A stretch of 51,479 nt of DNA from positions 1 to 51,479 of the forward strand of contig JBBTUB010000012.1 of the NCBI GenBank assembly GCA_038064015.1, written 5' to 3'. This document shows positions 34,772-44,017 of this stretch, piece by piece; position 1 is the first letter of the stretch; every line of letters starts with the position of its first letter. A program made the position numbers and the translations under genes. The notes below the pieces were generated by a model. That model did not search any database. It saw only the letters and a list, made by a program, of their open reading frames with translations, and had not been told where the DNA came from. Source of the DNA: Patescibacteria group bacterium (GTDB taxonomy: Bacteria; Patescibacteriota; Minisyncoccia; 2-02-FULL-40-12; IGHO2-01-FULL-4-A).

Positions 34772-37549
34772 ATGTCCCAAAATCTTTTCCCGCTCCAGAA
34801 CGAAGAACTCAAGGAAATCATGGAGCAGCCCCAGCAATCGCGAGGATTATCCTGGGCGAGGCTTTTTGGCGAAGGCGATCCCTATGACGCGATTACCTGG
34901 GAGCGGCGAGATGCGCGCATTACCAAAGGGAGCGGCAAGGTTGTGTTTGAGCAAACCGATATCGAAGTTCCCAGTTTTTGGTCGCAGACCGCGATCGACA
35001 TCGTCGCTTCGAAGTATTTTCGCGGCAAGCTCGGCACGCCCGCGCGGGAGACGAGCGTCAAGCAGATGATCAATCGCGTCGCCGACACGATTTCCGGCTG
35101 GGGATTCAAAGACGGCTACTTCGCGACTGCGGAGGATTACCAAAATTTCAAATACGATCTCCGATATCTCTTGGTCAACCAGTATGCGGCGTTCAACAGC
35201 CCCGTATGGTTCAATGTCGGCGTCCATGAGCGGCCACAATGCTCCGCATGCTTCATCCTTGCCGTGGAAGACAACATGCAGTCGATCCTGGAGTGGTACA
35301 AAGACGAAGGATGGATTTTTAAATACGGATCGGGATCAGGGACCAACTTGTCCAAGCTCCGCTCATCAAAAGAGCAGTTATCACGAGGCGGTTATTCTTC
35401 AGGCCCTGTCTCGTTCATGAAAGGCGCCGATGGCGTTGCCAACAGTATTCGCTCCGGTGGCACCACACGCCGCGCGGCCAAGATGGTGGTGCTCAATGTC
35501 GACCACCCGGATCTCAAAGATTTTATCTACTGCAAGAAAAATATCGAAGAGATGACCCGCATTCTCGAGGCGAGTGGCATCCAAAATTCCATCGAGGGCG
35601 ATCTTTTCTCTCCCTATACGCTCTTGCCGTATCAAAATGCCAACAATTCAGTGCGCGTTACCGATGAGTTTATGAAGGCGGTTGAAGCAGACCGTGATTG
35701 GGATTTCAAAGCCGTCACCACGGGAGCAACGATTGAAACCCACAAAGCCCGCGAGGTGATGCACTGGATCTCCGACGCCGCGTGGCACTCGGCCGATCCG
35801 GGAATGCAATACGACACCACGATCAATGACTGGAATACGGTTTCCAATACCGGGCGCATCAATGCGTCCAATCCCTGCAGCGAATATATGCACCTGGACA
35901 ACAGCGCCTGCAATCTTGCTTCGATCAATTTGCTTCGTTATCTCAAAGAAGATGGATCGTTTGATGTGGAGCTTTATAAGAAGACCATTGATACGATTAT
36001 CACCGCGCAAGAAATCATCGTCGGCAATTCTTCATATCCCACCGAGCGCATCACCCGAAATGCCATGGACTATCGCGAGCTTGGCCTCGGCTACGCCAAC
36101 CTTGGCTCACTCCTGATGAACCTGGGGCTGCCCTACGACTCCGATGAGGGGCGCGCCATCGCAGGGGCGCTGACCTCGATCCTATGCGGGGAAGCCTACG
36201 CGCAATCCGCCCGGATCGCCGCGATCACCGGGCCATTCGCCGGCTATGCCACCAACCAGGAGCCGATGCTCAACGTCATCAAGAAGCACGGTGCCGCCGC
36301 GGAGCAGCTTGCAGCCGGCGCGGTCACCGGAAATGGCCACTTCGCGCCGCCGGAACTCTTTCAGACCAGCGTCAATGTGTGGCGCGAAGCGCTTGACCTG
36401 GGCCGCCAGTATGGCTACCGCAACTCTCAAGCCACCGTGCTCGCTCCCACCGGCACCATCGCGTTTCTCATGGATTGCAATACCACCGGGATCGAGCCGG
36501 AGTTGGCGCTCGTGAAGTACAAAAAGCTTGTGGGAGGTGGCACGCTCAAGCTCGTGAACGCGCAAGTGCCCGCGGCGTTGCGCCAGCTCGGCTACAACGA
36601 GCAGGAGATTTCCGATATTGCCGCCTATCTGGTAGAAAAAGAAACCGTCGAGGGGGCGCCGAACATAAAGGAAGAGCACCTCCCGGTCTTTGATTGCTCC
36701 TTCAAGGCGGCCAATGGCTCGCGCACGATTGGCTACATGGGGCATGTCAAAATGATGGGCGCGGCTCAGCCGTTTATCTCGGGAGCAATTTCAAAGACCG
36801 TCAATCTTCCCACTGAGGCTACGGTGGATGATATCCGCAACGTATTTATCGAGTCTTGGAAACTGGGCCTCAAGGCCGTGGCGGTCTATCGTGACGGATC
36901 CAAGTCAGTCCAGCCGATGAGTACCACCGAAGCCAAAGACAAAAAACTGGTGGAGCATGCCAACGGCTATACACGTATCAAGCTTCCCGATGAGCGCCCG
37001 TCGATCACGCACAAATTTGCCATCGGCAATCACGAAGGCTACCTCCATGTCGGTATGTATCCTGACACCAAGAAGGTAGGAGAGACGTTTATCACGATTG
37101 CGAAAGAGGGGAGTACGATCTCGGGACTCTTGGATGTTGTCGCGACGCTTGCCTCGATGTGCTTGCAGTCCGGCGTACCCCTCAAAGTGCTGGTCAAGAA
37201 ATTCAAAGACATGCGATTCGAGCCATCAGGCATCACGACCAATGCCGATATCCCGTTTGCCAAGTCATTCATGGACTATATCTTCAGGTATCTCGGGATG
37301 AAGTTTTTGAACGAAAAAGACCGCGAAGAAATCTTTGGGCCCTCGGAAACGCCGGTTGACACGGTGGCCGCCCCGGCAGTCACTCCTGCCATCACTCCAG
37401 CACCCGCCCCCGTCAATTCCGGATGGGATGACGTAAAAGAAGCTCACACTGACGCGCCACTGTGCAGTGAGTGCGGCACGATGATGTTTCGAGCCGGCTC
37501 CTGTTTCTCGTGTCCCAATTGTTTCGCCACCACCGGCGTTTGCAACTAA
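34772..37549 (+). CDS. nrdJ: class II adenosylcobalamin-dependent ribonucleotide reductase
   Basis: 925 aa. NPCSEY active-site loop, TGIEPE, AISKTVNLP, and a C-terminal CxxC...CxxC tail (CSECGTMMFRAGSCFSCPNC). Confidence 0.95.
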   Translation: MSQNLFPLQNEELKEIMEQPQQSRGLSWARLFGEGDPYDAITWERRDARITKGSGKVVFEQTDIEVPSFWSQTAIDIVASKYFRGKLGTPARETSVKQMINRVADTISGWGFKDGYFATAEDYQNFKYDLRYLLVNQYAAFNSPVWFNVGVHERPQCSACFILAVEDNMQSILEWYKDEGWIFKYGSGSGTNLSKLRSSKEQLSRGGYSSGPVSFMKGADGVANSIRSGGTTRRAAKMVVLNVDHPDLKDFIYCKKNIEEMTRILEASGIQNSIEGDLFSPYTLLPYQNANNSVRVTDEFMKAVEADRDWDFKAVTTGATIETHKAREVMHWISDAAWHSADPGMQYDTTINDWNTVSNTGRINASNPCSEYMHLDNSACNLASINLLRYLKEDGSFDVELYKKTIDTIITAQEIIVGNSSYPTERITRNAMDYRELGLGYANLGSLLMNLGLPYDSDEGRAIAGALTSILCGEAYAQSARIAAITGPFAGYATNQEPMLNVIKKHGAAAEQLAAGAVTGNGHFAPPELFQTSVNVWREALDLGRQYGYRNSQATVLAPTGTIAFLMDCNTTGIEPELALVKYKKLVGGGTLKLVNAQVPAALRQLGYNEQEISDIAAYLVEKETVEGAPNIKEEHLPVFDCSFKAANGSRTIGYMGHVKMMGAAQPFISGAISKTVNLPTEATVDDIRNVFIESWKLGLKAVAVYRDGSKSVQPMSTTEAKDKKLVEHANGYTRIKLPDERPSITHKFAIGNHEGYLHVGMYPDTKKVGETFITIAKEGSTISGLLDVVATLASMCLQSGVPLKVLVKKFKDMRFEPSGITTNADIPFAKSFMDYIFRYLGMKFLNEKDREEIFGPSETPVDTVAAPAVTPAITPAPAPVNSGWDDVKEAHTDAPLCSECGTMMFRAGSCFSCPNCFATTGVCN

Positions 37550-38840: not shown

Positions 38841-38842
38841 AG

Positions 38843-38914
38843 TGCCGGCGAAAAGAGTCGAACTTTTGTCTGGTCGTTATGAGTGACCTGTTCTAACCGT
38901 TGAACTACGCCGGC
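38843..38914 (-). tRNA. tRNA with CAU anticodon (elongator Met, or Ile2 if lysidinylated)
   Basis: Acceptor GCCGGCG/CGCCGGC, anticodon loop CTCATAA (A31-C39 mismatch), T arm AAAAG-TTCGACT-CTTTT, discriminator A. Confidence 0.85.
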
Positions 38915-39591
38915 TTTCGTGCATCTAAAAACCCCGATATTAGCCCTAGTATTCTATACAATAAATCGGTTCCTTTCAACATTCGAAGCCGAAAGGTACC
39001 AAAATATTCGTCGTGGTTTTCGTAGCGCTTGTTTTGTTTTGATTGTAAGAAAACAGTACTCTGGAAACGATCAAGAGGAAGTTTAAGATATGTGGCCCAA
39101 TATTCCTTGATCTTGCGATCGCGAGATTTGTGAATTTTATTAATGGAAACCCTGAAGGTAAAGTTGTTGGGCGAAAGAGAAAAAAATCTATAAAACCAAT
39201 GCAACATGAACTTGATGACTTCAGGATCGGAATTCACAAAATCAATATTGCGATTCTTCTTCGATCCCTCGGCTAAATACAGCATCAAACCTGCGACAAA
39301 GTATTCTTCCTTGGAAATATTTTGAAAAACTTCTTTTCCTTCTTGGCGATATAATTCTATTCTCGCAAGTCGCTTCTTCTTATTAACTAAAGCGCCATTG
39401 AGTTGTCCTTGCCGGACCGCGCCCTGTTTAAGTTGCGTGAGTGCTTCATTTTGTTCTTTAGTTAGTTCAATATCCCTACACCAATAACTAATCGTGCTCT
39501 TGGGCATCTTGAGTAGGCGAGCTATGTCTTTGATGCTTCTGCCGTTTTTGCGTAATTTCCTTGCTTGAATTCTTATCTGTGATTTTGCCAT
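38905..39591 (-). CDS. free-standing HTH + LAGLIDADG-like putative homing endonuclease
   Basis: N-terminal HTH (GRSIKDIARLLKMPKSTISYW), a single LAGLIDADG-like motif YFVAGLMLYLAEGSKKN, AT-rich codons, and a stop codon inside the 5' end of the tRNA. Confidence 0.5.
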   Translation of the reverse strand: MAKSQIRIQARKLRKNGRSIKDIARLLKMPKSTISYWCRDIELTKEQNEALTQLKQGAVRQGQLNGALVNKKKRLARIELYRQEGKEVFQNISKEEYFVAGLMLYLAEGSKKNRNIDFVNSDPEVIKFMLHWFYRFFSLSPNNFTFRVSINKIHKSRDRKIKEYWATYLKLPLDRFQSTVFLQSKQNKRYENHDEYFGTFRLRMLKGTDLLYRILGLISGFLDARKPA

Positions 39592-39646: not shown

Positions 39647-39674
39647 TTGATAACTTTCTGGGGTGTGCTATGCT
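39647..39674 (+). promoter_or_regulatory. promoter for tRNA-fMet (TTGATA-16-TGcTATGCT)
   Basis: TTGATA at 39647-52 and an extended -10 TGCTATGCT ending at 39674, 16 nt before the tRNA 5' end. Confidence 0.45.
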
Positions 39675-39690
39675 GTAACCAGTTACCAAT

Positions 39691-39969
<279 letters not shown>

Positions 39970-39980
39970 CAGTCGTTTAA

Positions 39981-40122
39981 CAATTCCTGCAAGGTGAAGT
40001 GGGTGAAATTCCCACGCTGTCGCGCAACGGTTATAGCCCGGTCCCATGCAGTGGTAATTATACCGCCCGCGTCAGGCACTTAGGTTTTTTATAACACAAG
40101 GATCCCGCCGCGGCGGGATTTA
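39981..40122 (+). promoter_or_regulatory. cobalamin (B12) riboswitch candidate plus downstream hairpin
   Basis: AAGGUGAAGUGGGUGAAAUUCCCACGCUGUCGCGCAACGGU (39991-40031) matches the conserved AAGGGAA..GGUGAAAAUCC...GCUGUCCCGCAACUGU core. A GUCAGGCAC B12-box-like element lies at 40071-79. Hairpin ATCCCGCCGCGGCGGGAT plus TTTAT ends at 40124, before ATG 40128. Confidence 0.6.
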
Positions 40123-40127
40123 TCGTT

Positions 40128-40658
40128 ATGGTGAAGTATCTTCTTGGCTGGTTAGTGGTATTCGCGATTCGTCTCATGCCGTTTCGTCCGGCTAATGTCG
40201 AGCCGCTCATGGCGACGCTGATGCCGTATTCCAAAAAATATGGCTGGATCGGTGGATTTGTTTTCGCGTTTTTCGGCATCGTACTGTTCGACGTGGCCAC
40301 CGGCAACGTCGGCCTCTGGACGTGGATCACGGGGGGAGTCTATGGGCTCATCGGTACCGGCGCGTACTTCTACTTCAGGAATCGCCCCGCCACCGCAAAG
40401 AATTTTGTCATCTTCAGCGTCCTCGGCACACTCGTCTTTGACGCGATCACGGGACTTGGCATCGGGCCGATCTTTTACGGCCAGCCTTTCATGCAGGCGC
40501 TGACAGGGCAGATCCCATTTACGCTCAGGCACCTTTTGGGTAACGTTGTGTTGGCGCTGTTCGTCGCTCCGGCAATCTATCGCTGGGTCGTTGAAAATCC
40601 CATATTCGCGACGCGGTTGCTCTGGAATCGGTTGGCACATCATGCTACCATACGGTAA
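40128..40658 (+). CDS. polytopic membrane protein, ECF S-component/DUF6580-like; putative corrinoid uptake
   Basis: About 6 TM helices and an N-terminal IRLMPFRPANVEPLMA motif. The function is inferred only from the upstream riboswitch candidate. Confidence 0.65.
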   Translation: MVKYLLGWLVVFAIRLMPFRPANVEPLMATLMPYSKKYGWIGGFVFAFFGIVLFDVATGNVGLWTWITGGVYGLIGTGAYFYFRNRPATAKNFVIFSVLGTLVFDAITGLGIGPIFYGQPFMQALTGQIPFTLRHLLGNVVLALFVAPAIYRWVVENPIFATRLLWNRLAHHATIR

Positions 40659-40832
40659 TGCGGTGGTATGTGGTAAGCCTGATCAGCACCGCACTCGCAG
40701 CGGGTATTGGGCTTGTGCTGATTATCTTAAATACGACGCCTGATAGCGCAGGAAACGGCATCAAAGCGCTTTTTTTCGTTACCCTGATACTTACCGTCGG
40801 TAGCATCATAGCACTGATCATCAATTCACTGT

Positions 40833-40855
<23 letters not shown>
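40658..40855 (+). CDS. hypothetical small membrane protein (2 TM)
   Basis: The ATG overlaps the upstream TAA (TAATG). Two hydrophobic helices. Confidence 0.4.

Positions 40856-44017
<3,162 letters not shown>

Follow-up and report, generated by a model that had tools for sequence, protein, structure and literature searches.

On its forward strand, a 51,479-nucleotide (nt) contig of a Patescibacteria group bacterium (JBBTUB010000012.1, assembly GCA_038064015.1; hereafter the window) carries a leader RNA that ends directly before the gene of a 176-residue membrane protein. Our analysis indicates that this leader is a class II-type cobalamin riboswitch, which quite probably acts as the OFF switch of a transcript with two genes, one for a solitary CbrT-like S-component of the energy-coupling factor (ECF) transporters, likely a corrinoid importer, and the next for a membrane protein of 65 residues. 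The feature is real and coherent, and it was mostly foreseeable. The window is contig C12 of a genome (G000) of 33 contigs and 743,627 bp with an estimated completeness of 95.3%, and the homologues of its proteins come nearly all from metagenome bins of Patescibacteria (Paceibacterota-type).

In the mechanism that we propose, a high intracellular corrinoid level would lead the ligand, whatever its form, to bind the four-way-junction aptamer (39984-40054) and to lock a kissing loop between L5 and L13, the loops of helices P5 and P13, onto the P13 hairpin (40065-40077). A GC-rich hairpin with a U-rich tail (40100-40127) would then form, whereupon transcription would end and/or the start codon would be buried. 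Upon B12 scarcity, the leader would refold, the importer would be made and the cofactor would be supplied to NrdJ, a class II ribonucleotide reductase (RNR) encoded upstream. The elements on which this proposal is built are the following.

39984..40054, + strand: cobalamin aptamer of the compact class II type (RF01689, 37.0 bits; helices covary in 18 related leaders)
39987-39994 paired with 40044-40051, + strand: P1/P3, with one A-A mismatch
39999-40015, + strand: P4, loop UGAAAUU
40018-40026, + strand: P5, with L5 CGC at 40021-40023
40028-40040, + strand: P6
about 40035-40045, + strand: equivalent of the B12 box (joining segment J6/3 and 3' strand of P3), diverged
40065..40077, + strand: P13 regulatory hairpin, GCC-CGCGUCA-GGC with a 3-bp stem, present in 13 of 13 orthologous leaders
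40085-40090, + strand: run of six U after P13
40100..40127, + strand: GC-rich hairpin of seven Watson-Crick pairs (40102-40108 with 40113-40119), loop CGCG, tail UUUAUCGUU reaching the ATG
40128..40658, + strand: CbrT-like ECF S-component, six-helix membrane protein of 176 residues, candidate corrinoid importer

The aptamer was recognized by Rfam cmscan, in which model RF01689 (AdoCbl-II, clan CL00101) matches positions 39984-40054 of the forward strand with 37.0 bits for a gathering score of 36.5, at an E-value of 3.2e-5 over the whole window and of 1.9e-7 in a 301-nt search. This is the sole cobalamin riboswitch match in the 744-kb genome, and the general cobalamin model RF00174 has no match anywhere in that genome. 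Of the two Rfam models that the initial annotation had proposed as a check, RF01689 recovers the leader and RF00174 does not. All sequence strings quoted in that annotation were found in place, namely the conserved core at 39991-40031, GUCAGGCAC at 40071-79, the hairpin at 40102-40119, the tail UUUAUCGUU before the ATG at 40128 and RLMPFRPANVEP within the open reading frame (ORF) 40128-40658. One of them had been misassigned: GUCAGGCAC was taken for the B12 box, and it is part of the conserved P13 hairpin, the B12-box equivalent lying at about 40035-40045. The P6 helix has no extension in the window or in the related genome G001; in most other leaders it carries an inserted hairpin, which is why these match RF01482.

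As a pass by half a bit is unconvincing on its own, the RNA was sought in relatives. The set of related genomes comprised 61 genomes, five of which encode an orthologue of the 176-residue protein; the genomes carrying the gene (G000, G001, G002, G010 and G030) are 90-100% complete. Furthermore, species-representative genomes were scanned with a 21-sequence alignment; a relative is encoded in at least 430 of them, and the examination covered the 80 best loci. A riboswitch lies directly upstream of the orthologue, on the same strand, in G001 (RF01689, 43.7 bits), in G010 (RF01482, 50.1 bits) and in G030 (RF01482, 41.9 bits), the gathering score of RF01482 being 50. In the sister species G002 (L007/L012), the gene is kept, while deletion has removed P13, the hairpin preceding the ATG and all of the aptamer but some 30 nt at the riboswitch 5' end; the leader that is left is A/U-rich and unstructured, devoid of a Shine-Dalgarno sequence, and represents a natural loss of regulation.

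Lineage-specific covariance models, the first derived from seven leaders and the second from the matches of the first, locate the RNA in 18 places, the second round adding no riboswitch in the best 80 loci. Thirteen of the 18, out of 82 loci examined in all, lie directly upstream of the S-component gene on the same strand, four lie on the strand opposite to it, and the remaining one is further upstream, with a 376-residue ORF that begins within the match and sits between RNA and gene. The window scores 98-108 bits with these models. In G005, which lacks the S-component gene, RF01689 matches weakly (21.6 bits); this match was dropped, the lineage-specific models having missed it.

In the alignment of the 18 sequences, which was fitted to the model and thereby favours the structure, 94.7% of the cells are in standard pairs, as compared with 77.6% in shuffled alignments and 31-49% when the partners are slid. 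Double-sided changes occur in 15 of the 25 pairs, and the observed values are not attained in any of 500 shuffles. P1/P3, P4 and P13 covary strongly, and the covariation is plain also in an unfitted MAFFT alignment. An Rfam-like structure was imposed on the leader alignment, the P5/P6 pairing that RNAalifold itself proposed departing from the known architecture. Because the RNA is conserved in orthologous leaders, a chance origin of the window copy is excluded. By its Rfam score above the cut-off and the covariation of the orthologous leaders, the RNA at 39984-40054 is identified as a cobalamin riboswitch, as the initial annotation had supposed.

Could the window copy be a decaying relic that has ceased to regulate, as in G002? 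The marginal Rfam score and the diverged B12-box segment would agree with such a fate, and the loss of the switch is tolerated in G002. However, all helices of the window RNA are intact save for the single A-A mismatch in P1/P3; G001 and more distant genomes have matching L5, L13, P13 and hairpin elements, and the lineage-specific scores are high. We hold decay to be highly improbable.

The second half of the leader begins with P13, whose three stem pairs all show double changes between genomes (GCC/GGC, GUC/GAC, GCU/AGC, ACU/AGU) and which corresponds, in the alignments of G010 and G030, to the RF01482 3' hairpin. Its loop L13 displays a GCG (40069-40071) complementary to the CGC of L5 (40021-40023), both being nearly invariant across the 13 orthologous leaders. 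In L021, inspection by eye finds AGCG in L5 and CGCU in L13, the C-to-A change in the former being met by a G-to-U change in the latter, an apparent compensatory exchange. Locus L022 and five leaders of the DUF4430 type described below fall outside this register. In class II switches, cobalamin stabilizes the L5-L13 kissing loop (PMC5028336). Such a kissing loop is likely but not proven in the window leader, a caution imposed by L022, which does not fit.

Downstream of P13, a stable hairpin with a short T tract had been noted before the ATG, and the sequence bears this out: the seven-pair GC hairpin, worth -14.6 kcal/mol alone according to RNAfold, is followed by the tail UUUAUCGUU that abuts the ATG at 40128. 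Putatively, it is an intrinsic terminator. In 12 of the 13 orthologous leaders, P13 is likewise followed by a separate hairpin with a U run, which in G001 is a clean U5 tract, and in the thirteenth (L009) a U7 run follows P13 straight away; this conservation points to transcription attenuation. In most orthologous leaders, furthermore, the 3' arm of P13 is complementary, by eye, to the 5' arm of the downstream hairpin, and the two arms change together between genomes (CAGGC/GCCUG, CGGCA/UGCCG, UAAGCA/UGCUUG, AGGCAA/UUGCUU), which would look like an antiterminator freed when the ligand is absent. This complementarity is weak in the window and in G001. Two candidate antiterminators of the window leader, a pairing of the 5' arm of P13 with the 3' arm of the hairpin (-13.6 kcal/mol, where the hairpin has -20) and one between the hairpin and the P1 5' strand, were rejected as weaker than, or nearly isoenergetic with, the terminator fold.

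The same region is compatible with control of translation initiation instead of termination, the hairpin and a lower stem hiding the start codon, which no Shine-Dalgarno sequence precedes. Indeed, RNAfold predicts that UUAUAAC (40088-40094) pairs with GUUAUGG (40125-40131) in a lower stem that includes the AUG at 40128-40130. Moreover, the U tract UUUAUCGUU makes a poor terminator, the switch-less leader of G002, A/U-rich and unstructured, suggests that initiation depends on an open start region, and ribosome loading is the step that well-studied class II cobalamin switches control via P13 (PMC5028336). Against translational control stand the orthologous leaders, where the hairpin is followed by a run of four to seven U in 12 of 13 cases and this run, in several, lies as far as 30-180 nt from the start codon, an arrangement that fits termination better, as does the clean U5 tract of G001. 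We regard purely translational control as possible, without favouring it. OFF regulation itself appears well founded, by analogy and from the conserved parts, and the window copy may act by termination, by start-codon occlusion or by both.

The ORF controlled by the leader has no earlier in-frame start than 40128, and its product contains no cysteine according to its translation. The AlphaFold2 model, computed from an alignment of 56 family members that also served for the family profile, has six helices and a mean predicted local distance difference test (pLDDT) score of 96.2. With VIA, it superposes on 4HUQ_S with a Z score of 16.1 and a root-mean-square deviation of 2.6 over 154 residues, followed by FolT, RibU, PanT, BioY and ThiT; BtuM is matched with a Z score of only 9.6. 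The chain of 6FNP, CbrT, is not among the Foldseek and VIA matches listed, which says nothing either way. The model thus gives the protein the fold of an ECF S-component, in line with the roughly six transmembrane segments foreseen for it.

Since a match to this fold does not give the substrate, we relied on sequence kinship. The protein has 175 homologues, mostly in Patescibacteria. Searched against all Protein Data Bank (PDB) chains, the family profile has a sole relevant match, the 182-residue chain A of 6FNP (E 1.7e-8, residues 9-151), and no other S-component chain, be it RibU, ThiT, FolT, BioY or BtuM, appears at E up to 10. We infer from its length and name that this chain is CbrT. It shares with the family the motifs PNV(E/Q)P and F-x-x-x-H-x-x-GN. 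Within the family, residues His135, Asp105 and Gln128 are invariant or nearly so. By this criterion of sequence, the closest characterized relative of the 176-residue protein is CbrT, not BtuM. The protein reaches no Pfam or NCBIfam cut-off: PF07155 (ECF riboflavin S-component, RibU) scores 22.9 bits for a cut-off of 26.7 and PRK13661 scores 18.8 for 99. The likeness to DUF6580 proposed initially is not found in the protein itself, which PF20221 does not match at E up to 10, although this domain matches 15 of 56 relatives at E up to 0.01 (best 2.7e-12); PF07155 touches 27 of the 56. A literature search on DUF6580 found no paper.

The genomic company of the family was examined in the same 80 loci. 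In 22 of them, a gene for a class II RNR, whose domains are ATP-cone, RNR_Alpha and RNR-II insertion, lies directly downstream on the same strand, and none of these 22 loci has the riboswitch. In L025, L041, L044 and L065, an antisense cobalamin riboswitch adjoins the S-component gene; it precedes a gene for a DUF4430 protein in three of the four (L025, L044 and L065). Transcobalamins have DUF4430 as their C-terminal domain (PMC4350170). A second, larger DUF4430-containing protein is encoded beyond in L025 and L041, and its cluster has weak matches of the squalene-cyclase type and of the eukaryotic cobalamin-binder type. A larger DUF4430-containing protein is likewise encoded directly upstream of the S-component gene, on the same strand, in L040. 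Riboswitches, nrdJ operons and CbrT homology are three independent lines that tie the S-component family to B12, and the idea of a candidate corrinoid importer gains from them.

A cargo other than a complete corrinoid can be envisaged, such as a precursor of the lower ligand (alpha-ribazole or dimethylbenzimidazole (DMB), as proposed for the riboswitch-controlled CblT), riboflavin or another vitamin. The substrate cannot be read from an S-component fold, and the best Pfam match of the protein, below threshold, is the riboflavin family PF07155. On the other hand, CobS was not found in the genome, which argues against import of a lower-ligand precursor, as this ligand could not be attached. The switch upstream of the gene is of the cobalamin type and not of the flavin mononucleotide (FMN) type, the profile finds CbrT and none of the RibU, ThiT, FolT or BioY chains, and nrdJ and DUF4430 genes accompany the family. 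A cargo other than a complete corrinoid is consequently improbable, and we retain corrinoid import as the likely function.

The consumer of the cofactor is encoded 2.6 kb upstream of the locus.

34772..37549, + strand: NrdJ, class II (B12-dependent) RNR, cofactor consumer (PF02867, 454 bits; PF08471, 79.6 bits)

NrdJ had been described as the only RNR of the window, and this extends to the entire genome, where it is the sole match of PF02867 (class I/II RNR large subunit) and where NrdD was not found. No other B12-binding domain (PF02310) was found in the genome, and BtuC has no convincing match there (14.5 bits at a contig end). EcfT/CbiQ (PF02361) has no match at E up to 0.1 in G000, G001, G002, G010 or G030; in a control search, the family was found in 13 of 14 reference genomes. 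As no EcfT was found, the 176-residue protein must act without an ECF module and probably works alone, as BtuM does.

Transport without EcfT is nevertheless not a given, since CbrT of Lactobacillus delbrueckii does not by itself support B12 uptake in Escherichia coli (PMC5997447). The protein may bind B12 and need a partner, which could be a divergent energizing module, the 65-residue protein encoded next to it or a factor of a host cell in an episymbiotic lifestyle. A conserved small membrane ORF translationally coupled to the S-component gene would suit this reading, as would a 95%-complete genome from whose assembly an ECF module could be missing. However, EcfT escaped detection in all five gene-carrying genomes, BtuM and some BioY proteins demonstrate that solitary S-components can transport (PMC6072759), and the 65-residue ORF is confined to very close relatives. 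We judge the need for a partner unlikely and keep to a solitary importer.

Several observations weigh against the proposed switch and its function. The Rfam score clears its cut-off by no more than 0.5 bit, and the B12-box segment (AGCCCGGUCCC) has diverged. The switch lies directly upstream in only 13 of the roughly 80 family members examined. In the window, a consensus terminator scan made no call on the + strand at 40100-40127, the U tract being too interrupted, and folding of the leader gave no convincing antiterminator, the minimum-energy fold keeping both P13 and the hairpin. On the side of the protein, there is the inactivity of the solitary L. delbrueckii CbrT in E. coli, and neither a PduO- nor a CobA-type adenosyltransferase was found in the genome, though NrdJ needs adenosylcobalamin (AdoCbl); G001 has PduO and G030 has CobA. 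Absences in G000 rest on a genome that is 95% complete. Finally, an NrdJ-type RNR (PF08471) occurs in 55 of the 61 relatives and the S-component family in only 5 of the 61, so that most relatives must get B12 by another route; the family is not the general B12 route in this group.

The second gene of the presumed transcript directly follows the first.

40658..40855, + strand: ORF for a small two-helix membrane protein of 65 residues, its ATG overlapping the stop codon of the S-component gene (TAATG)

The product is kept at 68-83% identity in four close relatives and matches no family; it is not encoded in G001, and the ORF of G002 at that position is weakly similar (E 0.047). This ORF is probably co-transcribed with the S-component gene under the same switch. 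A complex prediction for the two proteins gave a score of 0.00, which weighs neither for nor against binding.

Upstream, the aptamer begins 14 nt after the 3' end of an initiator-type tRNA(CAU) gene (39691-39969) whose anticodon loop is split by a group I intron (RF00028, 39716-39922, 61.4 bits); ARAGORN misses this tRNA gene. The orthologous initiator tRNA has no intron in G001 and has one in G002, and the order tRNA, riboswitch, S-component gene is kept in the genus (G001 and G002). The sole promoter-like site of the + strand (39647-39674) precedes the intron-bearing tRNA, which makes co-transcription of tRNA and leader possible, and the 3' trailer of the initiator tRNA may be the source of the riboswitch leader. 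The motif CCCGCC-NN-GGCGGG occurs twice in the window, in the intron (39794-39807) and in the hairpin before the ATG (40104-40117), against a chance expectation of 0.21 occurrences; a single loop base distinguishes the two copies. On the opposite strand, a 228-residue ORF with weak helix-turn-helix matches (38905-39591) lies between a tRNA-Met (38842-38914) and the intron-bearing tRNA. Beyond the two-gene unit, positions 40833-41972 encode a PheS catalytic core with a fused FDX-ACB domain (PF01409 and PF03147), followed by gyrB and not by pheT; G001 has this architecture as well downstream of its S-component gene, and so does G002 as judged from ORF size and position alone.

A bolder proposal, which we put forward tentatively and think doubtful, is that the CbrT-like family, which at least 430 species genomes (mostly Patescibacteria) encode, would form a second, cysteine-free lineage of B12 importers independent of the ECF module and evolved from a module-dependent S-component, and that in this genus the riboswitch mRNA would be promoterless, a 3' trailer of the intron-containing initiator tRNA precursor.

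Patescibacteria have tiny genomes and no B12 synthesis, and here every deoxynucleotide depends on a B12-requiring enzyme. How vitamin B12 is acquired bears on the dependence of these bacteria on neighbouring cells. The leader of 145 nt and the protein of 176 residues form a compact and testable pair, which could serve two questions: how an S-component moves a 1.3-kDa cofactor without an ATPase module, as for BtuM and solitary BioY, and how a minimal class II cobalamin switch couples a kissing loop to a separate terminator. A literature search combining Patescibacteria and 'cobalamin riboswitch' found no paper under those names.

Compared with known systems, the RNA is closest to the class II cobalamin riboswitches (RF01689 AdoCbl-II, formerly AdoCbl-variant, e.g., env8HyCbl; RF01482). 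They share the compact four-way junction without a large peripheral extension, the GGUGAAAUUCC and GCAACGG cores, and the complementarity of L5 to a downstream P13 loop (PMC5028336). Unlike in these switches, P13 of the window has a stem of 3 bp, lies about 50 nt before the start codon and therefore does not contain the ribosome-binding site; it is followed by another strong hairpin, with a U-rich tail, that abuts the ATG, and the J6/3 'B12-box' segment has diverged, with a score just over the cut-off.

Among solitary transporters, BtuM of Thiobacillus denitrificans (6FFV, 8C7P, 8OVV) works alone and, like the 176-residue protein, has the small S-component fold in an organism without an ECF module (PMC6072759). 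The two differ in that the essential cobalt-ligating Cys80 of BtuM has no counterpart in the cysteine-free protein described here, and in that no sequence relation is detectable (E up to 10), the structural Z score being 9.6 as against 16 for FolT and RibU; BtuM is mostly found in Proteobacteria.

The kinship with CbrT is closer. The ECF-CbrT complex of L. delbrueckii (6FNP) transports cobalamin and cobinamide, and its gene cluster reads nrdJ-cbrS-cbrT-pduO (PMC5997447); CbrT and the 176-residue protein have the same six-helix fold class and common motifs, and relatives of the latter keep the same genomic company, with nrdJ and DUF4430-type genes. However, CbrT needs an ECF module (EcfT and EcfA/A'), of which EcfT was not found in the genome studied here or its four relatives, the alanines of its helix 1 (A-LLT-A) are not conserved in the present family, and the gene of the 176-residue protein, unlike that of CbrT, is regulated by a riboswitch. 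The combination of a B12 switch and a B12 S-component was predicted by Rodionov 2009, as cited in PMC5997447. It is already known that B12 riboswitches precede B12 transporters and that CbrT is a B12 S-component; what differs here is a CbrT homologue that occurs in genomes without a detectable ECF module and lacks a dedicated Pfam family, and a short P13 set apart from the terminator-like hairpin.

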